Under the pieces are notes generated by a model. That model made no database searches and was not told the origin of the DNA. It saw nothing but the letters and a program-made list of their open reading frames with translations. Source: a bacterium (GTDB taxonomy: Bacteria; UBA9089; UBA9088). From it: a stretch of 34,494 nt of DNA. Both the position numbers and the translations under genes were made by a program. Each line of letters opens with the position of its first letter. Position 1 is the stretch's first letter. The stretch covers positions 1-34,494 of the forward strand of contig JBFMED010000073.1 in the NCBI GenBank assembly GCA_040753475.1, given 5' to 3'. Positions 2,325 through 31,983 of this stretch are shown piece after piece.

Positions 2325-4062
2325 CTAGCTTAAACGCTTTTCAAGGCATTCGCATTCCTTTTCAATCCAAGAAGGAAGCCTGTTTCCAAATTTTAAAAGA
2401 AATGCTTTTATATCCAGAAGCTCTTTTTGCCATTCATCTTTGTCTATCTTAAATAGCTCTTTTTCATTTATATTAAGTCCTGTAAGGTCTAAGTCTTTAG
2501 AATCCAATGGGTGTCTCTTTTGCTCCTACCCTACCTTTTGCCCTGTTAATAATCCATTTTAAAACCCTTATATTTTCAGAAAATCCAGGCCATAAGAAAT
2601 TTCCTCCTTCATCCTTTCTAAACCAATTTACAAAGAATATCCTTGGAGGATTTTCCATTTTCTCTCCCATCCTAAGCCAATGCTCCCAATAATCTGCCAT
2701 ATTGTATCCACAGAATGGCCACATTGCCATTGGATCGCGACGCAGGATGCCTACATCCTGGGTTGCCGCTGATGTTGTCTCTGATGCCATTCCACATCCC
2801 TGAAATACCCCAGCTTGCCAATTAAATGCCTCATATACCAGAGGAACAACCGATGACCTTCGGCAGCCAAAGATTATGGCAGATATGGGAACACCCTTTG
2901 GATTATCAAATTCTTTTGATAGGGTTGGACATTGGGTTATGGAAACCGTAAATCGTGAGTTTGGATGGGCAGCATCCTTTGAAGAGGATGGATTTCCTTT
3001 CCAGTCAATCAAGCCTTCTGGAATTCCATCAAGTCCATCCCACCAAGGCTCATTTGTTTTTGTGGCAAGGGCTGTGTTGGTAAAGAGGGTTGGATAGAAT
3101 GTGCCATTTTTTAAGGTCTTTAGCATATTTGGGTTTGTCTTTTCTGATGTTCCAGGTGCTACACCAAAAAATCCCATTTCTGGATTAATAGCATAAAGCC
3201 TTCCATCATCTCCGATATTCATCCAGGCAATGTCATCGCCAATTGTCCATATTTTATATCCAGAAAGAGAGGGATTAAGCATAGCAAGGTTTGTCTTTCC
3301 GCAGGCAGAGGGAAGGGCGGCTGTAATATATGTTGTATTACCAGATGGGTCTTCAATGCCCATAATCACCATATGCTCTGCCAGCCAATTTTCTTTCAAG
3401 CCAAGGAAGGATGCAATCCTTAAGGAAAAGCATTTTTTTCCGAGCAAAGCATTTCCACCATATCCAGAGCCAATAGACCAAACCAAACTTTCATCGGGAA
3501 AGTGCATAATGAACCTTCTTTTAGGAGAAAGGTCTCCTATGGAATGAAGCCCTTTTACAAACTCAAAAGAATTTCCTATTCTTTCTAATACAGCCTTTCC
3601 TTTTCTTGTCATTATCCTCGTGCTTACAGCCACATAGGATGAATCAGTAACCTGGATACAGGCTTTTGAATAGGCCGATTCTGGGTTTCCCATCATATAA
3701 GGAAGAACATACATCGTCCTTCCCTTCATACAACCTTTAAAAAGGGGATTGAGCATTTCCTTTGCTTCTTTCGGCTCCTTCCAATTGTTATTTGGGCCAG
3801 ATGTTTCTTGGTTTGGATGGCAGACATAGGTAAGTTGCTCTGTTCTTGCTACATCACTTGGATGGCTTCTATGGAGATAGGCATTTGGCCAGGCTTTCTG
3901 ATTTAGGGAATAAAAAACAGGATTGCCATTTATTTTTTCCTTCTCTATTCCCACTTTGATAATGGAATGTGCTTCTTCCTCGCTTCCATCGCACCAATAA
4001 ATATCTTTGGGGTGCGTCAGCTCTGCACATTCGCTAACCCATCTTTCAATTTCTGTTTTCAT
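2325..4062 (-). pseudogene. pckG: GTP-dependent phosphoenolpyruvate carboxykinase with the reading frame broken near 2497-2510
   Basis: The 521-aa ORF carries GSGYGGNALLGKKC, SACGKTNLAM and NWFRKDEGGNFLWPGFSEN, and stops after ETPIGF. The 60-aa ORF in the adjacent frame (TTG at 2507) continues with the conserved PEPCK C-terminus (DSKDLDLTGL...EFW-like...). Confidence 0.8.
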
Positions 4063-8324: not shown

Positions 8325-9832
8325 AAATCGCATCGTCTAGTGAGATAAAAGAGATAGATAAAAAGGCAGGCGAATTGTATAACATCTCTCCCCTCATTTT
8401 AATGGAAAATGCTGGCATATCAGCATTTAATCTTTGTGTTTCAACCCTGAAAGAGATTGGGGGAAATAGGGTTGTTGTTTTTTGTGGTCCTGGAAATAAT
8501 GGAGGAGATGGCCTTGTTGTGGCAAGGCATTTATTTATCAAGGGATTTGATGTTAAGATTTATCTTGTAAATGGAAAAAAACAAAGACTTGAGAGAAAGA
8601 TAAACCTTGAGATTGTAAGAAAGCTTAACATCCCAATAATAGAGGAATTTGAACAAGCTGACCTTTTTGTTGATGGCTTGCTTGGAACGGGTATAGCAAA
8701 AGAGCCAGAGGGGAAAATAAGGGATTGCATTGATTTTATGAATTCTTCTGATAAAACCATTATCTCCCTTGATATTCCATCCGGGCTTTCCTCTGATTCT
8801 GGATTTTCCCTTGGATGTGCCATTAAAGCAGATAAGACAATAACCTTTGGTCTTCCAAAGATTGGCCAGGTTTTATACCCAGGCGTAGAATATGTTGGAA
8901 AGCTATATCTTTCAAGGATTTCCCTGGCCGATGAATTAAGTAAAGACATAAAGATAAACCTTTTAACTGGCTCTGAAATGGCAAGCCTTCTTCCTAAAAG
9001 ACCTTTAAACTCACACAAGGGCAATTTTGGTAAGATTCTTGTTATCGCAGGCTCGGTGGGAATGACCGGTGCGGCAACCTTATGTTGTCAGGGTGCGATG
9101 AGTATGGGAGCTGGTCTGATTTATCTTGGAATTCCAGAAAGCTTAAACGATATAATGGAAATTAAGCTTACCGAGGTGATCACAAAGCCCCTGCCAGAGA
9201 CAAAGAAAAGAACACTCTCTCCCTCTGCATACAATGGAATTATAGAGCTGGCAAAGAAATGTGATGTTTGTATAATTGGACCTGGCATATCAAGACAGGG
9301 TGAAACAAAAAAGCTTATCCAAACCCTTGTTTCAAGACTTACCATCCCCATAATCCTTGATGCAGATGGAATTTCGGCAATTTCTCCTCAAGAAATTTCT
9401 GGAAAGAATATTTTAATTACGCCACACCCAAAGGAATTGGCAGATTTTGTTAAAATAAATGTAGATGAAATTCAAAGGGATAGAATTGGAATTGTCCAAA
9501 GGGTAATGGATGAATATAAAATTTCTATCCTCCTTAAAGGATTTAGGACACTAATTGGCTACAATGGGCAAATTTACATAAACCCAAGTGGAAATCCAGG
9601 AATGGCAACCGGTGGCACAGGTGATGTTTTATCTGGAATGATTGGCTCTCTGGTTGGTCAGGGTTTAAATCTTGGTGATTCTGCTTGTCTTTCTGCCTTC
9701 CTTCACGGCTTATCAGGCGATATAGCAAAGGAGGAAAAGGGAGAATATTCCCTTATTGCATCCGACCTTATAGATTTCCTTCCTTGGGCTATAGATGAAT
9801 GTAGAGAAAAATACAATGTGGAGGGGATATAA
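8321..9832 (+). CDS. nnr: Bifunctional NAD(P)H-hydrate repair enzyme (epimerase/dehydratase, YjeF family)
   Basis: N-terminal GPGNNGGDGLVVARHL and C-terminal GGTGDVLSG kinase-fold motif. ATGA overlap with the thrS stop. Confidence 0.85.
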   Translation: MKIASSSEIKEIDKKAGELYNISPLILMENAGISAFNLCVSTLKEIGGNRVVVFCGPGNNGGDGLVVARHLFIKGFDVKIYLVNGKKQRLERKINLEIVRKLNIPIIEEFEQADLFVDGLLGTGIAKEPEGKIRDCIDFMNSSDKTIISLDIPSGLSSDSGFSLGCAIKADKTITFGLPKIGQVLYPGVEYVGKLYLSRISLADELSKDIKINLLTGSEMASLLPKRPLNSHKGNFGKILVIAGSVGMTGAATLCCQGAMSMGAGLIYLGIPESLNDIMEIKLTEVITKPLPETKKRTLSPSAYNGIIELAKKCDVCIIGPGISRQGETKKLIQTLVSRLTIPIILDADGISAISPQEISGKNILITPHPKELADFVKINVDEIQRDRIGIVQRVMDEYKISILLKGFRTLIGYNGQIYINPSGNPGMATGGTGDVLSGMIGSLVGQGLNLGDSACLSAFLHGLSGDIAKEEKGEYSLIASDLIDFLPWAIDECREKYNVEGI

Positions 9833-9847
9833 AAATGCAAAGATTAA

Positions 9848-10022
9848 AATGTCTGTATGTATTTAGCTAGGTGAGAATAAAATGGAAAATAGGCACTTAA
9901 GGCACAGAGGCACAGAGTTTATTTGTTACTTGCTTTCTTTGTGCCTTTGTCCCTTTGTTCCTTTGTGCCTGTTTACGTCCCTTTGTGCCTAGCTATAGGG
10001 TAGCTAAACACATACAATGTCT
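9848..10022. mobile_element. MITE-like non-autonomous element with 15-bp terminal inverted repeats, internal inverted octamer arrays and a 7-bp flanking direct repeat
   Basis: AATGTCT | GTATGTATTTAGCTA (9855-9869) ... TAGCTAAACACATAC (10001-10015) | AATGTCT. Inside are AGGCACWK octamers (9891-9917) and the complementary CTTTGTSC octamers (9937-9990). No ORF. Confidence 0.6.
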
Positions 10023-13881: not shown

Positions 13882-13896
13882 TGTATGTGTTTAGCT
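13882..13896 (+). repeat. Solo copy of the MITE-type terminal repeat TGTATGTGTTTAGCT
   Basis: Exact reverse-complement match to 10002-10016. One mismatch to 9854-9868. Confidence 0.65.
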
Positions 13897-13969
13897 GTTT
13901 CAAATTCATTCACTTTTAAGAAATTTTGAATTCTAAATAATGTTCTATATCCCTCCTTCTTTATTTTCA

Positions 13970-17382: not shown

Positions 17383-17751
17383 TTAATCGCCTCTTGCAAC
17401 CATCCGGATAAAATCGGTTGAGGTAAATATACCAAGCCTATCTTTACCCTCGATAACAATTCTGTGGAATCCATTCCTGTGCATATAGATTGCTGCCTTT
17501 TTTGAATCCATCTTTCCTGCCTCATCTATTGAAACTGTCTCAAGCTGCCTCTCTTTGCAGAATTCTGTTAATTTCTGTGGTGATTCCCTGTCATGCTCAG
17601 TGATTATCCCTATGGTATGGCCATTCCTATTTACTATCAAAAGACAACTCTTTCCTAAATCCCCCATCTTTTTTAAGGCATAGCTTACACTCTTATTCCA
17701 ATCTACCGTTAATAGACCCTCAAATGTTGCATAATCTACAATTGACTTCAT
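17383..17751 (-). CDS. Stand-alone CBS-pair domain protein
   Basis: 122 aa with two CBS-like halves (...LLIVNRNGHTIGIITEHD... and ...RIVIEGKDRLGIFTSTDFIRMV). There are no intergenic bases on either side: the qmoB stop ends at 17752 and the qmoC ATG is at 17382. AAGGGG SD lies inside the qmoB 3' end. Confidence 0.75.
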   Translation of the reverse strand: MKSIVDYATFEGLLTVDWNKSVSYALKKMGDLGKSCLLIVNRNGHTIGIITEHDRESPQKLTEFCKERQLETVSIDEAGKMDSKKAAIYMHRNGFHRIVIEGKDRLGIFTSTDFIRMVARGD

Positions 17752-19980
17752 CTAAAACCCCTTATATGGATTAGGACCAATCGCCTTTACCTTTTCAATA
17801 AAGCTTTCTATCATCTCTGGTATCTTGGGATAGTCTGCAATAGAGGTCTCCACCAGAGAAACCCTCTCTGCCTCAAGCCTAAGACGGTCAAGCGTTTCTT
17901 GGACTTTAGAAAGTCTATACTTTGCCAACTCGCTCCCCTTGATAAAATGGCATTGATAATCCTCGCCCAGCTTACAACCAATGAGCAAGATTCCGTCAAT
18001 TCCCTTTGACAGGGCATCGGTTACCCAGACAAGGTTCAGGCAACCAAGGCACCTTATGGGGATAAACCTTACCAAAGGGCTTATATTTTTTCGCATAATC
18101 CCTATGGTATCCAAAGCAGGATAGGCATCGTTTTCACAGGCAAAGCATAAGAATCGCATCTGGTTTTCATCCTCTGGAACATAAATAGATTTTATCATTG
18201 AGCTTATAATATCAATACTAAAGTCCTTAAATGAGACAATCCTTTCTGGGCAGGCACCCAGGCAGGTTCCGCACCTCCTGCACCTATTTGGCTTAAAGTA
18301 GGGAATCCCCTTCTCGTCCTCATCAATTGCTCCAAATGGACATTCATCGGTGCATCGCTTGCAAGCTGTGCACCTTTGCAGGAATGCCTCAGGATAGGTC
18401 ATATCCCATGCCCTTGGATGAACCGCAATCCCTTTTGCTACCTGTTCAATGCATTGTATGGCCTTTAAAGCTGCACCACCTGCATCTTCTATACATTCAC
18501 CTATATTCATTGGTGTCCTTACACATCCGGTAGAATAGACCCCGGTTCTCCTTGTCTCATAGGGAAAGCAGATAAAATTGGAATCCACAAACCCCAAGGC
18601 TTCTTCAAAAAGGGGAACCTCAGGTCCCTGCCGATATTTTAGGTTTAAGATAAAATCAGGTTTTTTTGTTTCATTTATATAGCTTGCCTTTGCCTCATCT
18701 CCCTTTAAGGCTGCCTTTGATAGACCATCAAGATAGCAAAGTGCATCCTTTGTTGAGGGAAGCATCCCTATGGCAAGGACAACAAGGTCTCCCTCAACCT
18801 CAATTACCTCCCCTAAAAGTGTATTCTCTGCCTCAAGGATGAGGCTTTCCTTCTCTTTCTTTATTGCCTTAACATCTGCCTTTGTCAATAAAATCCCAAT
18901 ATCCTCCTGGGTCTTCTTGTAAAAAAGCTCATATTGGGCGGGTGTTCTCATATCTTTATAAAAAATATAGGCAATTGAATTTTCATCCTTTTCCCTGATA
19001 TATTTTGCCTGTTTTAAAGATGTTAAGCAGCAATATGATGAGCAATAGGGTAGATGCTCTTTATCCCTAGAGCCAGCACATTGGATAAAGGCAACCCTTT
19101 TTACCGCCTTTCCATCCTTTCTTAAGAGCTTACCCTGCTTTGCCATCTCCTCAAACTCAATGTTTGTAATTACATCAGGATATATTCCATAGCCAAGATG
19201 AGAAAGCTTTGATGCATCATAGGGCTTAAATCCCGAGGCTAAAATAACAGCCCCTACTTTTCTTCTTATTTCCTCATCCTTTCTTTTTATTGAAACATCA
19301 AATACCCCAGGTTGTCCTTCAATGCTTTCTATCTCTGAATTTATTAAGACCTCAATATTTGGATGCTCATTAACTTTTTTTATCTTCTCAAAAACAATTG
19401 GTTCTCTTATTTCCTCATAGGGATATTCTGTGGGAACTTGCTTGTATAGCCTTGCTGAATACCCACCAAGGTTGTTTTCTTTTTCCACAAGGATTGTCTT
19501 ATACCCACAATCTGCCGTCTCAAGGCTGGCGGTTAATCCACTTATCCCACCACCCACAACCAGAATAGCCCTTTCTATATTTTCTTCTATATATGGCTCG
19601 GGAATATTCTGCTTAATTGCCTTAGTGATTCCCATTTTAAGATAGTCTTCGGCAATTAGCTGGGTATCTTCTCTCTTTGGTGGCTGGCAAAAAACACAAA
19701 GCTCCCTTATATTCACCCGCTCAAGGATACAATTTGGGAAATTAAACACCTCGGACTTTACCCTTCCTGAACATCCTGCAATAACCAATGTGTTTATCCC
19801 CTCCTTCTTTATATCCTCCTTTATTAAGGCAATCCCTTCATTGCATAGGACAGGGGATAGCTTAAATGATGTAATAGGAAGCTTTGTCTCCTTTGAGGCT
19901 TTCTCTATCAGCCTTTCTAAATTCAAGGATTGCTCTATACTACACCCCTTACAGATATAAATGCCTATCTTCTTATCCAT
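17752..19980 (-). CDS. qmoB: QmoB (HdrA-like flavoprotein with ferredoxin and MvhD-like domains)
   Basis: VVGGGISGLTAS FAD motif, CTACKRCTDECP and CRRCGTCLGACP, 742 aa. Overlaps the qmoA 3' end by 16 nt. Confidence 0.9.
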   Translation of the reverse strand: MDKKIGIYICKGCSIEQSLNLERLIEKASKETKLPITSFKLSPVLCNEGIALIKEDIKKEGINTLVIAGCSGRVKSEVFNFPNCILERVNIRELCVFCQPPKREDTQLIAEDYLKMGITKAIKQNIPEPYIEENIERAILVVGGGISGLTASLETADCGYKTILVEKENNLGGYSARLYKQVPTEYPYEEIREPIVFEKIKKVNEHPNIEVLINSEIESIEGQPGVFDVSIKRKDEEIRRKVGAVILASGFKPYDASKLSHLGYGIYPDVITNIEFEEMAKQGKLLRKDGKAVKRVAFIQCAGSRDKEHLPYCSSYCCLTSLKQAKYIREKDENSIAYIFYKDMRTPAQYELFYKKTQEDIGILLTKADVKAIKKEKESLILEAENTLLGEVIEVEGDLVVLAIGMLPSTKDALCYLDGLSKAALKGDEAKASYINETKKPDFILNLKYRQGPEVPLFEEALGFVDSNFICFPYETRRTGVYSTGCVRTPMNIGECIEDAGGAALKAIQCIEQVAKGIAVHPRAWDMTYPEAFLQRCTACKRCTDECPFGAIDEDEKGIPYFKPNRCRRCGTCLGACPERIVSFKDFSIDIISSMIKSIYVPEDENQMRFLCFACENDAYPALDTIGIMRKNISPLVRFIPIRCLGCLNLVWVTDALSKGIDGILLIGCKLGEDYQCHFIKGSELAKYRLSKVQETLDRLRLEAERVSLVETSIADYPKIPEMIESFIEKVKAIGPNPYKGF

Positions 19981-21239
19981 TGTATTGCTTTCATCGCAGA
20001 GGAGGTTGCCTTTCTGGTTGCCCTGGTAACATCCATCGGATTTTCGGCGACACCTGCAGCATATACACCCTTTTTTAGGGATGAATGGATAATAAACCCA
20101 TCATTATTACAAGAAAATATTCCCATTCCATCCTGACCCCTGACTCCTGACCCCTGACTCCTGACTCCTTTAATTGATGGCTGCATTCCCACCGCAAGCA
20201 CTGCCATATCCACCTTTACCTTTACCTTACTTCCTACTTCCACATCCTCTGCCTCTAAAATCACATCGCCTGTTTTATCCTCGCTAATCTTTCCCACCTT
20301 TCCCTTTATTAGATGGACATTTTTTTCATCCTCTATCTTGTTGTAAAACCTCTCATAGAATATACCGGGTGTCCTAATGTCTATATAAAATAGATAAATT
20401 TCTGCATTAGGGTTTTGCTCCTTGATGTAGGTAATCTGCTTTAAGGATGCCATACAGCAGATGTATGAGCAATAGGGAAGGTGGTTTTCATCCCTAGAGC
20501 CAGCACATTGGACAAAGGCTATTCTTTCAGGGGGCTTTCCATCTGATGGCCTTGTTATCTTGCCCTGAGTTGGGCCATTAAAAGATGCAATGCGTTCCAT
20601 CATCATATTGGTAATAACATTCTTTATCCTTCCAAAGCCAAGGTTCTCTATTTTTTCTGCCTCATAAGGCTTCCAGCCGGTTGCCCAGATAATCGAGGAT
20701 ACCTCTATTTCAATGGTTTTTGGTTGCATATCAAGCTCAATAGCAGAATATTTGCAAGCAGAAACACATTCTCCACATCTTGAGCAAACCTTATCATCAA
20801 TCACATACCTAAGGGGAAACGCCTGGTTGTAGGGGAGGTGTATGGCTTTTGTCTTGTTTAGAGAAAGGTTAAAATCATCCTCTCTTTCAACCGGGCAGAG
20901 ACTGACACACTCACCACACCCTGTGCAATTATCCTTTACATACCTTGGGTTTATTCTAATGGCTACATTAAAACCATTGCCTTTTTCCTTAATTTCTTCT
21001 ACCTCTGCCAAGGTCAAAAATGATATATTTGGATTAGCCCTCATCCTTCTTAAATTTATCTCAACACCGCAAGCAGGAGGGCAGAGCTTGGGAAAATATT
21101 TATTAAGCTGAACAACCCTTCCTCCAAGATATGGATTCTTGTCAAGAATTAAAGCCTGATAGCCGGTTTCCCCTATCTCAATGGCAGAGGTTATCCCACT
21201 AATCCCTCCGCCTACAACCAGAACATCCTTTTTTAGCAT
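19965..21239 (-). CDS. qmoA: QmoA (HdrA-like flavoprotein)
   Basis: MLKKDVLVVGGGISGITSA, CTGCGECVSLCP and CSRCGECVSACK. I place the start at 21239 (AGGA SD upstream) rather than 21293, which would overlap the upstream gene. Confidence 0.9.
   Translation of the reverse strand: MLKKDVLVVGGGISGITSAIEIGETGYQALILDKNPYLGGRVVQLNKYFPKLCPPACGVEINLRRMRANPNISFLTLAEVEEIKEKGNGFNVAIRINPRYVKDNCTGCGECVSLCPVEREDDFNLSLNKTKAIHLPYNQAFPLRYVIDDKVCSRCGECVSACKYSAIELDMQPKTIEIEVSSIIWATGWKPYEAEKIENLGFGRIKNVITNMMMERIASFNGPTQGKITRPSDGKPPERIAFVQCAGSRDENHLPYCSYICCMASLKQITYIKEQNPNAEIYLFYIDIRTPGIFYERFYNKIEDEKNVHLIKGKVGKISEDKTGDVILEAEDVEVGSKVKVKVDMAVLAVGMQPSIKGVRSQGSGVRGQDGMGIFSCNNDGFIIHSSLKKGVYAAGVAENPMDVTRATRKATSSAMKAIQWIRR
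20132..20168 (-). repeat. Five tandem CCTGACY heptamers inside the qmoA coding sequence
   Basis: Plus strand reads cctgacc cctgact cctgacc cctgact cctgact cc, translated as GVRSQGSGVRGQ in QmoA. Confidence 0.85.
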
Positions 21240-21249
21240 TCCATTCCTT

Positions 21250-22071
21250 TCATAAATGGATTCCCTTTTGTCTTGCCCTTCTGGAAAGTTCATAAGAGCG
21301 ATAGAGCTTTATGTGTGGATGTTCTTTTTTAAGATGTGCCTCTACATTAGGATGGATTGAATAACAAAGGATGAGGGGAAATACATCGGCTTTTAAGTAA
21401 TTTCTTGCCCTTTCAATAACCTTTGAAAAATCTTTAATATCATTTTTTCCTATGCTTGCTTTAGATTCTCCAATGATGTATATTTTATTTCCATTCTGCC
21501 TTGCCTCGGCATAGATATTTATCTCATCCTCACCACCCTCGGGATAGATAAAGAATCTCCTCTCAAATTCTTTTTCTATCTCAATTCCAAAATCCTTCTT
21601 TAACACATAAGGAAAGATGGAGTAGTATTTTTCCTCAAGCTCATAGCCAATGGTATTTGATATGCCACCTAATCTTTGGTCTGTTTTTTCCTGGGCAATG
21701 GCAAGCTTTTCTAACCTCTGTTCTGTTCTTTTCTGTGCCTCGGCAAGCTCTTCTACCCTTTGCTCTGTCCTTTTCTGTGCCTCGGCAAGCTCTTCTACCC
21801 TTTGCTCTGTCCTTTTCTGTGCCTCGGCAAGCTCTTCTACCCTTTGCTCTGTCCTTTTCTGTGCCTCTGCAAGCTCTTGCAAAGCTTTATCAAGCCTGCC
21901 TACCTCCTTCTGGGTTTCTTTCTGGGCCTCGGTAAGCTCTTTCTGGGCAATGGCAAGCTTCCTTACCTCATTGGTAAGGAGGTTAAACTCTTCCCTATCT
22001 ACCCTTATACCCTTTGTTTTTTCCTCTACAATGGTTTCTATTGTTTTATAAAGCTCAAGATCTATAGCCAT
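21250..22071 (-). CDS. Coiled-coil protein with a C-terminal PD-(D/E)xK-like (restriction-endonuclease-fold) domain, function unknown
   Basis: [14 protein letters not shown] repeats form a long heptad-rich helix. The C-terminus has GGEDEINIY...[14 protein letters not shown] (D...ExK). I start it at MAIDLE (22071), because the track's TTG at 22107 is part of a TTGACA -35 box. Confidence 0.6.
21739..21864 (-). repeat. Three perfect 42-bp tandem repeats, flanked by degenerate copies
   Basis: ctcggcaagctcttctaccctttgctctgtccttttctgtgc occurs three times with no mismatch. It encodes [14 protein letters not shown]. Confidence 0.95.
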
Positions 22072-22077
22072 ATTTTT

Positions 22078-22107
22078 ATTATAACCTTTAGGCCAATCTT
22101 CTGTCAA
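22078..22107 (-). promoter_or_regulatory. Consensus sigma70 promoter TTGACA-N18-TATAAT, with the -10 ending 6 nt before the ATG at 22071
   Basis: Minus strand reads TTGACAgaagattggcctaaaggtTATAATaaaaatATG. Confidence 0.55.
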
Positions 22108-22195
22108 TCTTATTACGGAATTTTTATCTGATATTTCAAGATTTCTTCATCCGTTTTTTCTCTAATAATTTTGGCATTGGCTTCCTTTATAAATC

Positions 22196-24136
22196 CTAAA
22201 CCACCAGCTGCTTATACTCTCTTTTAAAGATCTCAAACTTTCCGGTTTGGCTATTGTATTTGGAATTGACAAAGCATTTCCAATTACTATCATCAATCTT
22301 GGGAAAATCTGCTCTATAATAATAGCCAGGATACCTTGTCTCCTCCCGAAAGAGCATATGCCTGATATGAGCCTCAGCGGTTAAGATTCTATGCCTGTTT
22401 TCCCAGGCCCTCATCAGCTCATGGAGGTTTTCTGCCGCTAATCTATCTGAATCCTCCTTTGCCATTTCCAATAGCTCTAAGCCCTTTTCCATCATTGTTC
22501 TGCTCGTGATATACCAGGTGCTTACCCCTCCCGCATACTCATCCATAATCTTCATCACCCTTGGCTGTAATTGCTTTGGTCTAATATAATTGGGGTTTAT
22601 ATCAGCCGCGGTAGTATAGCCCTTGTATTTCTCATAAAGCTCAAAGGGAAGGCAGATCTCTTTGGCAAATTCCTCAATTGGCTTGGTGATGGTCGGGGTA
22701 AACCCGGAATGGTCAAGACAAAAGGCAACCATTGCTTTTGCCGCAATCCTTCCATCGGCATGTGAGCCAGATGAGAATTTATGACCCGAGGCACCTACGC
22801 CATCGCCGGCGGTGAATAGCCCCTTAACGGTTGTCATTCTATTATAGCCCCATTGCCATTCAGGGGGTGCGATGTCAGATGGCCCACTTACCCAAAAGCC
22901 TGAACAAGCGGCATGTGAACCAATAAAGTATGGCTCGGTAGGCATCATCTCAGATGGCTTTTCCTCTGGAGCAATATTATTGGTTGCCCAAACACCTGCT
23001 TGGGCAATGGTCATATCCAGAAAATCCTCCCAGGCGGCATTTTCCATCTCCTTTGCCAATTTTGCATCCTTTGCCCTCATTGCTTGAATAGCATCCTGTG
23101 TATGCATAAAAACAGGACCCTTTCCTGCCTTTAGCTCCTCAATCATTTGGTGGTTCCTTAAGCAGGTGGGAACCGGCTTTATATCGCAATATGGGGCATA
23201 TTGCTTGATTACCGGGGATTGGGTATAATCCTCACCTAAAGCATTGGTTGCCTTGCATTTTAAATAAAGGAAGAATGTTCCCACCGGGCCATAGCCATCC
23301 TTAAACCTGGTTGGAACAAATACATTCTCCATCATAGTAAGCTCTGCCCCTACCAGAAGCCCCATTGTGGTAGTTGAGCTTGAATTCCATACTGGATACC
23401 AGGTTCTTCCTAAACCCTCATCGGTTGCCCTAGGTCTATAGGTATTTACGCCGCCACCACAGGCATTAAGCACAACCTTTGCCTTAAAGAGGTAGCACTT
23501 GTAATCCCTGACAGAAAAACCAACCGCGCCAGCAATCCGATTATCCTCCTTCTCATCAAGGATGAGATGGGTAATAAAGACCCTCTCGTATAAATTTTGT
23601 GCCATCCCTGTCTTTTCTCGGTTGTATTCCAATACCTTCTTTGCTGCCTCGGCTACAATAACTTTGTATGACTCTCCGCTAATCATTGCCTGCCATCTGC
23701 CTGAGCGAACACACCTTGCCCCATCCCCAAGTTTTTTCTCCTCCTCTCCCTCGTTTTTCCAGAGGGGAAGCCCCCATTCGTCAAAGAGATAGACAGAATC
23801 ATCAACATGCCTTCCGATATCATAGACAATGTCCTCCCTGATTATACCCATTAGGTCTCCACGCACATAATTGACATAGTCTTCTACTGTATTTTCACCC
23901 ACATTTAAGCCAATGTAGGTGTTTATGGCAGAAAGACCCATTGCCACAGTGCCTGAGCGGTCTAATGCCGCCTTATCCACTAAGGTTACCTTTATTCCCT
24001 TTGGTGTTGCCCATCTGCAAGCCTCATAAGCTGCACCACAATTAGCCATTCCACCACCGACAAGCAGAATATCTGTCTCTATTGTTTCCATTTCTGGTGG
24101 CTTGGCATAACTAAATATATTAACCTCTTTTTCCAT
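22196..24136 (-). CDS. aprA: Adenylylsulfate (APS) reductase alpha subunit
   Basis: ILLVGGGMANCGAA FAD motif, 646 aa, immediately downstream of aprB. Confidence 0.92.
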   Translation of the reverse strand: MEKEVNIFSYAKPPEMETIETDILLVGGGMANCGAAYEACRWATPKGIKVTLVDKAALDRSGTVAMGLSAINTYIGLNVGENTVEDYVNYVRGDLMGIIREDIVYDIGRHVDDSVYLFDEWGLPLWKNEGEEEKKLGDGARCVRSGRWQAMISGESYKVIVAEAAKKVLEYNREKTGMAQNLYERVFITHLILDEKEDNRIAGAVGFSVRDYKCYLFKAKVVLNACGGGVNTYRPRATDEGLGRTWYPVWNSSSTTTMGLLVGAELTMMENVFVPTRFKDGYGPVGTFFLYLKCKATNALGEDYTQSPVIKQYAPYCDIKPVPTCLRNHQMIEELKAGKGPVFMHTQDAIQAMRAKDAKLAKEMENAAWEDFLDMTIAQAGVWATNNIAPEEKPSEMMPTEPYFIGSHAACSGFWVSGPSDIAPPEWQWGYNRMTTVKGLFTAGDGVGASGHKFSSGSHADGRIAAKAMVAFCLDHSGFTPTITKPIEEFAKEICLPFELYEKYKGYTTAADINPNYIRPKQLQPRVMKIMDEYAGGVSTWYITSRTMMEKGLELLEMAKEDSDRLAAENLHELMRAWENRHRILTAEAHIRHMLFREETRYPGYYYRADFPKIDDSNWKCFVNSKYNSQTGKFEIFKREYKQLVV

Positions 24137-28745: not shown

Positions 28746-29924
28746 TTATTTTTCCTCCTCATAATATTCCTCATAAAAGATATAGGGATTCTCCCTTGGG
28801 TGAAAGACCATCTCTGGAATTGGCTTAAGCCCGATTGCTTCTACAAAATTCCCCAACCCAACCCTCTGGATGAGCTCTCCTATTCTCTCCCTTGCCTTTC
28901 CATGCTCATCCCAGAAATCCCACATTCTTCTAATCAATGCCTTAAGCTCATCGTAGGGCTTTTCTATCTTCATAAAGGGAACAAGCACAAAGGCAAGCTG
29001 GGCTCCCTCCTTAATCGGTGCCTTTGCTCCTATAAGAATAGCTGCTCCCCTTTCATCGCCAATGGAGAGTGCCTTTGGGATAATGTTTAGGCAATGCATA
29101 CACTTGCTACATTCACTATTGTCAATATTCAATGTCTTTCCATCCCATTCAATGCAATTCCTTGGGCATCTATCCACGATATCATTTTTAATATCTATCC
29201 CTTTTTCTACATATTCCATTATTGCATCCTGGTCTATTTTTATTTCATCCTTCCATATTCCAATGATTGCCAAATCTGACCTGGCAATACCTGCCACACA
29301 ATCATTTGGGCATCCTGCTGCTTTTACCTTGAATTTATAGGGAAAGAATGGCCGATGGATTTCATCCTGATAGCTAATTGTCAAATCATAGGTTAATGCC
29401 AGGGTGTCATAGCAGGCAAATTCACACCGGGCAGGGCCTACACAACAGCTGGGCGTTCTAATATCAGAGCCAGAACCCCCTAAATCCCAGCCAGCTTTGG
29501 AAAGCTCGGTAAATAAAGGTTCCAGGGAATCTGTATCTGCACCCAGCAGAACAAGGTCTCCGGTTGAGCCGTGAAGGTTGGTAAGACCTGAGCCATATTT
29601 GTCCCAGATATCCATAAGCTTTCTTAAGGCATCGGATGTATAAAACCAGCCCGAGGTCTGATTTACCCTTAGGGTATGAAAGTGTGCGGCGTCAGGAAAT
29701 TCATCGGGTAGGGCAGAAAACCTTCCAATTACGCCACCGCCATACCCCTTTACGCCAACAATCCCTCCATGCTTCCAATAGCCCCTTTTGTCTTTATAAG
29801 ACCTCTCAAGCTGGTTTAGAAGACCAATCGCCTTTTTGTTCTTTTCCCCGGCTTTCTTTATCTCTTTGACAAAGCTTGGCCATCTCCCCTTTTCTAATTC
29901 ATTTAACAATGGTGTTTCAGGCAT
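28746..29924 (-). CDS. dsrA: Dissimilatory sulfite reductase alpha subunit
   Basis: [38 protein letters not shown]. Confidence 0.92.
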
Positions 29925-30306
29925 TGCAACCTCCTTTATTTAGTGCCACAGGAAGTGGGCCTGCGGCAACAAGTTTTTTACGGCGAAAATCTATAATTGC
30001 TGGAAAACCTTCCAATGTTCTTGAACCAAGAAGAATAAGGTCACCCTTTTTTCCAAAAATAACCTCATCAATGGTTTCAAAGCCTTCGCTTTTAATCACA
30101 GCATAACCTACATCCCTTGTAATTATCTGGCCATTAGCCATTACAAACTGTAAATCCCTCTTTTTTACTGTAATTCCTGCCTTTTTAAGATAGCTTTCAG
30201 GAATCCATGTGTATTCAGAACCAGAGTCAACCATTGCTTTTACATCAACAGACCTTTCTTCTAATACTGGATTACTAACCGTGCAATCAACATAGAATAT
30301 CCCCAT
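29917..30306 (-). CDS. Retropepsin-like (clan AA) aspartic protease, small single-domain type
   Basis: [10 protein letters not shown] (D-S/T-G catalytic motif) and a [12 protein letters not shown] flap-like region, 129 aa. The stop overlaps the dsrA ATG (ATGCCTGA). The start is 1 nt after the dsrP stop. Confidence 0.7.
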
Positions 30307-31501: not shown

Positions 31502-31530
31502 ATTATATTAAAACAATCTCTTTTTGTTCA
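31502..31530 (-). promoter_or_regulatory. Possible internal promoter TGAACA-N17-TATAAT ahead of dsrP
   Basis: Minus strand reads TGAACAaaaagagattgttttaaTATAATggggatgtttaaATG. The -35 overlaps the stop of the upstream NTase gene. Confidence 0.3.
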
Positions 31531-31983
31531 ATGTTTGTTTTCGCCTTCTAGGTATTCCAAATCCCATTTATCCTGGGTTCTTCCATAAAATTTTTTAAGC
31601 ACAATAAGATCCTCACGGGAGATAAGAAAAACAGGCACATCTCCAAAATAAGATTTTGCTTTTTTCTCCCATGCCTCATTGAAACTAATCTTTTCCTGAG
31701 ATGTCCATACCTCTATCTTGAAAGGCTCCTCTCCTATTTCTAAACGCTGTCCTTTAACTAAAAATGCTTTTGGTTCTATGTTAACCCCAGCAAAATTTTT
31801 TATAGCCTTAACCATTCTTGTGCTGTTTTCTTCATCCTGCCTTATCCAAATATCCAAGTCTTTTGTAGCCCTGGCTACTTTAGTATGGAGCATAGTGCCA
31901 TAGGCACCAATAATGAGATATTCCACCCTATTTTTATTAAGTATATTAAGGAATCTTTCAAAGTCATCTTTGAAATTAGCCAT
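31528..31983 (-). CDS. Minimal nucleotidyltransferase-fold protein (DUF2204/DUF6036-like, family recalled from memory)
   Basis: VEYLIIGAYGTMLHTKVARATKDLDIWI fits the G[AS]...DxD NTase pattern, 151 aa. The ATG overlaps the stop of the 59-aa ORF (TAATG). Confidence 0.6.
   Translation of the reverse strand: MANFKDDFERFLNILNKNRVEYLIIGAYGTMLHTKVARATKDLDIWIRQDEENSTRMVKAIKNFAGVNIEPKAFLVKGQRLEIGEEPFKIEVWTSQEKISFNEAWEKKAKSYFGDVPVFLISREDLIVLKKFYGRTQDKWDLEYLEGENKH

Follow-up and report, generated by a model that had tools for sequence, protein, structure and literature searches.

A gene for a predicted DUF3782 coiled-coil nuclease between aprA and qmoA in the sulfate-reduction operon of a UBA9088 bacterium

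The stretch of DNA analyzed here, referred to as the window, comprises positions 1 to 34,494 of contig JBFMED010000073.1 (34,494 nucleotides [nt]; assembly GCA_040753475.1) from a bacterium of the lineage UBA9089; UBA9088. Its minus strand carries, in this order, dsrO, dsrP, dsrAB, a GltD-like gene, sat, aprB, aprA, an open reading frame (ORF) of 273 amino acids, qmoA, qmoB, a gene encoding a CBS domain protein, qmoC, and a TauE gene. The 273-residue ORF (ATG at 22071, TGA at 21250-21252, minus strand) is annotated by NCBI as hypothetical protein AB1595_02650 and is predicted to encode a coiled-coil stalk followed by a PD-(D/E)xK nuclease domain. On the sequence comparisons reported below, it appears to be a new member of the known, uncharacterized DUF3782 family and a lineage-specific insertion. 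We consider it probable that this solitary gene entered the aprA|qmoA spacer of a sat-aprBA-qmoABC operon in an ancestor of the lineage and has been inherited since.

Within the operon, the sat-aprB-aprA and qmoA-qmoB-CBS-qmoC junctions are all 0 to 3 nt long or overlapping. The 956 nt that separate aprA (TAG stop codon at 22196-22198) from qmoA form the sole large gap of the operon and contain the nuclease gene, whose stop codon lies 10 nt ahead of the qmoA ATG. The closest relatives of the window AprA, identified among 5.8 billion sequences, share 78, 78, and 71% amino acid identity with it. All six loci around these three relatives show the order sat-aprB-aprA-qmoA-qmoB-qmoC, followed by TauE where the contig reaches that far, and the aprA|qmoA spacers of the nearest relatives are gene free (255, 242, and 130 nt). 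Likewise, no nuclease-gene homologue was found within 6 kb of qmoA at any of 80 more distant qmoA loci, where the usual aprA-qmoA gap is 100 to 440 nt, compared with 956 nt in the window. The gene was absent from all 86 other apr-qmo loci examined. These comparisons indicate a true insertion, a discrete addition between aprA and qmoA, as had been proposed in an earlier interpretation of the window made from its letters alone (the sequence-only reading), which had also suggested comparing this junction among related genomes. Presence in one genome and absence in related ones at the same conserved site is a feature shared with free-standing homing endonuclease genes. As the nearest relatives with an empty spacer are only 71 to 78% identical in AprA, the difference is not a between-strain polymorphism.

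The insertion also appears to have changed the spacer itself. The aprA-qmoA spacers of the relatives open with a strong hairpin and are highly structured (RNA fold z-score of -4.6 in relative L100), whereas the remaining aprA-to-ORF spacer of the window is unstructured (z-score of -1.2) and contains no terminator. This difference argues that the native spacer was replaced and not just split. The roughly 60 A/T-rich nt ahead of the promoter could be either filler or a leftover of the original spacer. At the other end of the gene, the NCBI model of qmoA (442 amino acids, P0121) begins at an ATG at 21293, 18 codons upstream of 21239. Alignment of homologues backs the start at 21239, the extension (21240-21293) overlaps the 3' end of the nuclease gene, and the NCBI start is probably miscalled.

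Three close copies of the gene (L001, L002, and L003) were aligned with that of the window. The four copies come from three metagenome-assembled genomes (MAGs) of the same project, with L001 and L003 in AB1630 (GCA_040753555.1) and L002 in GCA_040756715.1. Similarity among the four starts at most a few nucleotides from the -35 box of a promoter preceding the gene, yet their upstream surroundings are unrelated. On the 3' side, L003 departs from the others at the stop codon, while L001 and L002 run 53 and 114 nt, respectively, into qmoA before they continue in unrelated DNA. Judged by these boundaries, the unit consists of promoter plus ORF and is bounded by the -35 box and the stop codon (about 22112-21250). 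Features of the locus are listed in Table 1.

Table 1. Features of the aprA-qmoA region of the window, in the direction of transcription
Feature	Position	Strand	Basis
aprA (adenylyl-sulfate reductase alpha subunit)	22196..24136	minus	ORF list; NCBI name of identical protein; homologues at 60-78% identity
Upstream arm of imperfect flanking repeat	22169..22194	minus	22/27 alignment with 21257-21231; p about 0.004-0.012
A/T-rich spacer of ~60 nt, unstructured	22108..22168	minus	No similarity to upstream flanks of L001-L003; fold z-score -1.2
Sigma-70-type promoter: TTGACA (22107-22102), N18, TATAAT (22083-22078)	22078..22107	minus	Sole 12/12 site in window; 0.02 expected from shuffles
Nuclease gene (AB1595_02650), coding sequence, 273 aa (amino acids), coiled coil plus predicted PD-(D/E)xK domain	21250..22071, including TGA	minus	ORF list; NCBI; >5,600 homologues; ratio of nonsynonymous to synonymous divergence (dN/dS) 0.14-0.28 between copies
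Stalk: predicted continuous 109-residue helix, residues 26-134, 14-residue motif	21670..21996	minus	AlphaFold2 full-length model, predicted local distance difference test score (pLDDT) 88.5
42-nt tandem array, 4.3 copies, three mismatch free (21742-21867)	21700..21878	minus	Tandem Repeats Finder plus exact check
Hinge LGGISNT, conserved Gly-Gly	21652..21672	minus	pLDDT <50 at residues 134-140; G135 and G136 nearly invariant
Predicted PD-(D/E)xK nuclease domain, residues 138-268	21268..21660	minus	AlphaFold2 pLDDT 92, predicted template modeling score 0.85; Foldseek; conservation
Downstream arm of flanking repeat: last sense codon (TTA) and TGA of nuclease gene, qmoA Shine-Dalgarno sequence (AAGGA), qmoA ATG (21239-21237)	21231..21257	minus	22/27 alignment
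qmoA, 424 aa from ATG 21239	19965..21239	minus	First 53 and 114 nt adjoin nuclease-gene copies L001 and L002

The context of L001 bears on the age of the insertion. This copy lies about 500 nt downstream of dsrO-dsrP orthologues (86 to 93% nucleotide identity), which are arranged and oriented as they are in the window, and the dsrAB, sat, and aprBA genes that separate dsrO-dsrP from the nuclease gene in the window are missing. Between the window and L001, synonymous divergence (dS) is 0.21 to 0.29 for the nuclease gene, 0.25 to 0.29 for dsrO, and 0.55 for dsrP, which is compatible with codivergence of the three genes. As the gene-qmoA junction is present in three MAGs and dS resembles that of the neighboring genes, the insertion is old and not a recent event. 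All four copies are intact, and their dN/dS values point to a gene that is maintained under purifying selection. No QmoA or AprA 80 to 99% identical to that of the window was found in the sequence collection searched, and both related MAGs therefore lack these genes as assembled. Overall, the comparisons favor an old insertion that was inherited vertically, after which two lineages lost the surrounding pathway genes, although incompleteness of the MAGs may explain their absence. Upstream of L001, a candidate leftover of aprA 3' sequence (local alignment z of about 3.9) was not reproduced by BLAST and was treated as unproven.

The promoter at the 5' boundary of the unit is the only perfect match to TTGACA-N18-TATAAT within the window, and its -10 box ends 6 nt ahead of the ATG at 22071, as the sequence-only reading had described. 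Its -35 box is invariant in all four copies and its -10 box reads TA(T/C/A)AAT. The length of the spacer varies, and the distance of 6 nt to the ATG is kept. Such conservation is the pattern expected of a working promoter with a leaderless mRNA, and the transcript of the nuclease gene is predicted to be leaderless or nearly so. A further suggestion, that this promoter could also drive qmoABC, was borne out with respect to position: neither a terminator nor another promoter-like site was found between it and qmoA, and it seems well placed to feed qmoABC. Read-through itself is something we infer. With the stop codon so close to the qmoA ATG and no terminator in between, the nuclease-gene promoter and read-through from aprBA would now have to supply qmoABC.

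The C-terminal domain of the protein is predicted with high confidence to adopt a restriction-endonuclease fold with an alpha-beta-beta-beta-alpha-beta core, in agreement with the nuclease-like D...ExK domain recognized in the sequence-only reading. Its predicted catalytic residues (E146, D182/E183, and E202-x-K204) are invariant or nearly so among 31 to 73 homologues, as is the invariant R171, and they occupy the expected fold elements of the AlphaFold2 model, where this superfamily has a glutamate on helix 1, an acidic residue on beta-2, and (D/E)xK on beta-3. A Foldseek search, the check that had been recommended for this fold, returned PD-(D/E)xK nucleases as top matches. The best PDB neighbors were the MspJI nuclease domain, NucS/EndoMS, Can2, Cap4, Card1, and BamHI. 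More than 5,600 homologues were detected for the protein. Some of them are named "DUF3782 domain-containing protein" or "chordopoxvirus fusion protein," the two labels that the earlier interpretation had suggested. Searched alone, the domain yielded 601 clusters at 50% identity, from proteins of about 120 to 440 amino acids, and it was C-terminal in all 150 representatives listed (the best 150 of 601 significant matches). Three homologues, P0001 (79% identity), P0023, and P0088, exceed the Pfam DUF3782 cutoff of 24.4 bits with 25.0, 25.4, and 31.0 bits, respectively, so that the window protein belongs to DUF3782 by transitive homology. Many homologues also carry the precomputed domain label PF26618. 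Matches to NCBIfam and PADLOC models (SMC, Rad50, JetC, and PbeC) were regarded as coiled-coil noise and not used, and a PDB-sequence profile search with the nuclease-domain alignment returned only spurious tropomyosin matches.

DUF3782 (PF12644) has been described as a "family of prokaryotic endonucleases" with a coiled-coil stalk and a PD-(D/E)XK domain (Hartmann et al., eLife 2016, PMC4786415). The window protein shares this architecture, a long N-terminal coiled coil followed by a C-terminal PD-(D/E)xK domain, and has heptad-type repeats like the bacterial members, not the nonads of crenarchaeal ones. Genomic mobility, promoters, and repeat turnover are not covered in that study. Other PD-(D/E)xK groups are more distant. 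PDDEXK_10 (DUF1626/COG5493, group 95) is an uncharacterized group of Archaea and Bacteria with a patchy distribution attributed to horizontal gene transfer and a member in Thermodesulfovibrio (Steczkiewicz et al., NAR 2012, PMC3424549). The corresponding model, PF07788, did not match the window domain or 30 of 31 homologues and matched the remaining one weakly (E value of 0.0025), which makes the group a sister family at best. With NucS/EndoMS and MspJI, the domain shares the minimal PD-(D/E)xK core (4f0q, E value of 4e-4 and TM score of 0.58; 2vld and 5gke, E values of about 9e-4), and one homologue matches Pfam NucS_C (E value of 9e-4). However, at 10 to 15% identity, the window protein has a coiled-coil stalk in place of the NucS-type N-terminal DNA-binding domain or the SRA-like domain of MspJI. 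The Rpn/YhgA-like PDDEXK_2 proteins, termed "recombination-promoting nucleases / putative transposases," form group 113 of the same classification (PMC3424549). They likewise include solitary, often multicopy bacterial PD-(D/E)xK genes without classical transposon ends, but they show no sequence match to the window protein and lack a long coiled coil.

In the 42-nt array, which encodes part of the stalk, the tract of perfect period 42 spans 21867-21728 (140 nt), and exactly 3.0 copies are free of mismatches (21867-21742), which agrees with the three perfect repeats noted from the letters alone. The 14-residue motif that the repeats encode is nearly invariant in the family, and its conservation across phyla is unusually high. 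A GC-rich homologue (L097) encodes the same peptide in different codons, and the constraint therefore acts on the peptide motif. Separately, the repeat DNA was observed to be 80 to 88% identical between distant lineages (L085, L091, L099, and others), whose nuclease domains align at the protein level only. Copy number differs between the related copies, with 4 in the window, at least 8 in L001 (interrupted by an assembly gap), 2 to 3 in L002, and about 1 in L003, which agrees with the expansion or contraction of repeats proposed earlier. Distant homologues have near-identical 42-nt arrays of their own (13 copies at 91 to 96% in L098 and 10 copies at 93 to 97% in L099), and rapid turnover is therefore a trait of the family, not a sign of recent insertion at this locus. 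As the 42-nt unit encodes 14 residues, i.e., two heptads, its gain or loss keeps the register of the coiled coil. In L001, a scaffold N gap (3187-3286) lies inside the array. Short-read assemblies cannot resolve such arrays, and repeat numbers in all MAG copies, including the window, are uncertain. The number in the window may be a minimum, since the perfect 140-nt tract nears the read length (typically about 150 nt for short reads, as assumed here) and the L001 array contains the gap.

The genomic contexts of homologues are heterogeneous and include polysaccharide genes, ilv/leu genes, transporters, in one case an integrase, and PaREP1 or HEPN genes. No recurrent neighbor was found at L001 to L003, at L097 to L099, at the metagenome loci L084, L088, L091, and L092, or at a weak relative, L096. 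The presence of homologues in such unrelated contexts indicates that the family has no link to sulfur metabolism. PADLOC matches (JetC, DruC, PbeC, and LmuB) fell mainly in the coiled coil (about residues 7 to 174), with a weak typeIV_DinG match reaching residue 240. Searches by tblastn against 50,697 phage and 72,556 plasmid entries gave no homologue, the nuclease domain had no PHROG match, a single-protein scan of IMG/VR found no close relative, and a metagenome scan found no copy closer than 49%. At L084 (1475-2197 and 2333-3538), a tyrosine integrase lies immediately upstream of the nuclease gene, and similarity to the coiled-coil repeats recurs within a 240-residue ORF on the opposite strand about 2 kb away.

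In the explanation that we prefer, the heritable unit is promoter plus ORF, with the consensus sigma-70 promoter predicted to produce a leaderless mRNA, and the structured spacer seen in relatives is no longer present. The predicted helix of 109 residues, about 16 nm long, would assemble into a parallel coiled-coil oligomer. The Gly-Gly hinge would connect this stalk to a nuclease domain that depends on metal and uses an E...(D/E)...ExK active site, and oligomerization would join two or three such sites to cut nucleic acid, most likely DNA. Expansion and contraction of the 42-nt repeats by slippage or unequal recombination, with the register intact, would leave the stalk hypervariable in length. 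Its most likely role is that of a free-standing "conflict" nuclease with a selfish or a defensive function and no connection to sulfate reduction.

Several observations weigh against this explanation. Neither of the two MAGs with qmoA fragments contains apr or qmo genes as assembled, and their nuclease-gene copies may be relics of a decayed locus or may have been relocated. Simple vertical inheritance does not account for the sharp common 5' boundary of the unit. The structural matches to solved nucleases are moderate (TM scores of 0.43 to 0.58 and E values of about 1e-3 to 1e-4), no Pfam-A model was significant on the window nuclease domain, and the window protein itself scores below the DUF3782 cutoff (21.6 bits, E value of 2.5e-4, residues 104 to 170). 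The leaderless-like layout occurs in this clade and in L091 and is absent in most distant homologues.

The sequence-only reading had described a 13-bp duplication flanking the insert. The 13-mer occurs exactly only once, and its second "copy" requires a 1-nt indel. With one indel, the match extends over 22 of 27 columns, ATTTAT-AAAGGAAGCCAATGCCAAAA (22194-22169) against ATTTATGAAAGGAATGGAATGCTAAAA (21257-21231). This score was reached in 7 to 23 of 2,000 dinucleotide-shuffled sequences and by 1.2% of the window's segment pairs with the same spacing, which gives the repeat moderate statistical support. An explanation of the 13-mer as a generic ribosome-binding motif was rejected, as the start regions of other genes lack it. 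The downstream arm does form the Shine-Dalgarno region of qmoA, as claimed. The extra C, in contrast, is not needed to create the stop codon of the nuclease gene, because a TAA would be in frame without it. Each arm comprises AAGGAA, followed after a short interval by ATG, C(C/T)A, and AAA, and for this reason the upstream arm looks like a vestigial, decayed copy of the qmoA Shine-Dalgarno sequence, start codon, and first two codons. A 13-codon ORF with a good Shine-Dalgarno sequence (MPKLLEKKRMKKS; 22136-22177, minus strand, ATG at 22177-22175) directly follows the aprA stop and is probably a decayed remnant of the duplicated qmoA start, not a gene.

In all four copies, the common block opens at the -35 box (about 22112), roughly 60 nt past the 26-nt match, 70 nt past the 13-mer, and 85 nt from the aprA stop. 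Homology with L003 stops just upstream of the downstream arm (about 21260). As the upstream arm lies about 60 nt outside the shared unit and other family loci have no flanking duplications, a target-site duplication is not supported. The earlier claim of a flanking duplication thus holds for the existence of a repeat, which is longer than described, but not for its origin, and removal of the segment between the arms would not restore the original junction, since the shared block begins at the -35 box and not at the arm.

An insertion by a recent transposon-like event, in which 13 bp of target were duplicated, the element is everything between the repeat copies, and excision restores the junction, is accordingly improbable. 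The imperfect repeat is real and not a common ribosome-binding pattern in the window, and one arm begins 1 nt beyond the aprA stop, the other at the very point where L003 homology ends. However, the 60 nt that separate the upstream arm from the -35 box occur in no other copy, and the repeat spans Shine-Dalgarno sequence, ATG, and two codons, as expected of a duplicated qmoA initiation region and not of a staggered-cut footprint. The unit comprises a single nuclease-fold ORF, without a transposase, terminal inverted repeats, or a target-site duplication at its ends. Neither this locus nor other family loci showed inverted ends, and L097 to L099, L001, and L003 lack flanking duplications. The shared gene-qmoA junction and its neighbor-like dS also point to an old event. 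That same junction, found independently in three MAGs, makes it hardly credible that assembly wrongly joined an aprA contig to a qmoA contig through a multicopy, repeat-containing gene. The family is indeed multicopy in a related MAG, and the L001 array broke its scaffold at the N gap, but aprA and qmoA are adjacent in every relative, and their joining via a copy located elsewhere would be an unlikely coincidence. It is also very unlikely that the protein serves the operon in a functional accessory role, such as that of a scaffold or regulator of AprBA-QmoABC, and is not a nuclease passenger. Its tight spacing to qmoA, with which it is probably cotranscribed, and the purifying selection acting on it would suit such a role. 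Against it, the gene is missing from every other apr-qmo locus examined, homologues are found in unrelated surroundings and in genomes with no apr or qmo genes nearby, the catalytic nuclease residues are conserved, and copies persist where apr and qmo are gone.

A further alternative, which we regard as unlikely, is a self-mobilizing homing-type nuclease cassette, which would spread by DNA cutting and repair copying, sometimes together with its 3' flank, and be kept owing to the harm caused by its loss. The free-standing homing endonuclease genes found in phages, such as seg and mob of T4, resemble the window gene in being small nuclease genes with their own promoter, located between conserved genes and absent from the site in relatives. 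They belong to another nuclease family, whereas the window gene has no evident DNA-recognition module, occupies a chromosomal bacterial site, and represents an old insertion. Presence and absence at a conserved intergenic site and the same 5' boundary in four different contexts agree with such a cassette, as do the different lengths of qmoA 5' sequence in two copies and the intactness of the gene where the neighboring apr, qmo, and dsrAB genes are missing. L002 and L003 are mutually closest (dS of 0.13), yet their flanks are unrelated and only L002 has a piece of qmoA, which calls for at least one relocation of the unit from promoter to stop or else an error in binning. Furthermore, an independent pair of paralogues, L084 and L085 (whole-genome shotgun project LDZS01), shares only the gene and 77 nt upstream. 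On the other side, the divergence between the window and L001 fits vertical descent, and the position of L001 after dsrO-dsrP suggests locus decay rather than transposition. Moreover, a domain for sequence recognition is not apparent, searches of phages, plasmids, and viral contigs yielded no close copies, and errors in binning short contigs could have placed L003 in the AB1630 bin. The fullest form of this idea remains speculative and is one that we doubt: the unit would be an autonomous, transposase-less mobile gene, leaderless and with a promoter of its own, that encodes a coiled-coil nuclease and relocates by its own DNA cutting, with a 5' end fixed at the -35 box, carries 3' host DNA along, and persists like an addiction module while neighboring metabolic genes are deleted. 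If true, the hypervariable stalk would tune target reach or escape from inhibition.

The old, vertically inherited insertion of a DUF3782 gene that we favor is by itself a well-documented curiosity and not a new kind of system. Its site, the aprBA-qmoABC arrangement, is among the most conserved in sulfate reducers, and the replacement of a structured spacer by a consensus promoter illustrates a way in which a passenger gene can alter the expression of a central respiratory operon. The coiled-coil nucleases of DUF3782 constitute a large uncharacterized family (more than 5,600 homologues and about 600 clusters at 50% identity). The locus and its relatives provide handles on this family in the form of a minimal unit running from promoter to stop with a sharply defined 5' end, copies that keep pieces of a former neighbor gene, and family-wide fast-turnover 14-residue stalk repeats, which make questions of mobility, retention, and mechanism testable.

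Other features of the window and its related MAGs were also recorded. Rfam had no matches in the window. Between dsrP and dsrA is a 129-residue ORF for a retropepsin-like aspartyl protease (gag-asp_proteas; 29917-30306, minus strand). The three MAGs share a family of dispersed intergenic repeats (window 13886-13938 and 9794-9887; L002 1-128, 1345-1602, and 2826-3079; L003 1129-1220). In L002, modules of about 260 nt with 43-nt inverted arms recur every 1,474 to 1,481 nt and bracket the nuclease gene. These repeats may be MITE-like (miniature inverted-repeat transposable element), REP-like (repetitive extragenic palindromic), or cassette-boundary-like. An integron-cassette origin, which the L002 modules had brought to mind, was dismissed for want of integrase or attC evidence. 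The CBS domain gene between qmoB and qmoC (122 amino acids; 17383-17751, minus strand; 0-nt gaps) is missing from the nearest relatives L100, L102, and L104 and represents a second lineage-specific addition to the operon. Finally, the dsrO|dsrP junction holds a DUF6036 nucleotidyltransferase gene in the window (31528-31983, minus strand) and an MNT (NTP_transf_2) and HEPN gene pair in L001 (475-1174). The presence of different small toxin-antitoxin-type genes at the same junction in two related MAGs suggests recurrent invasion of operon junctions in this lineage.

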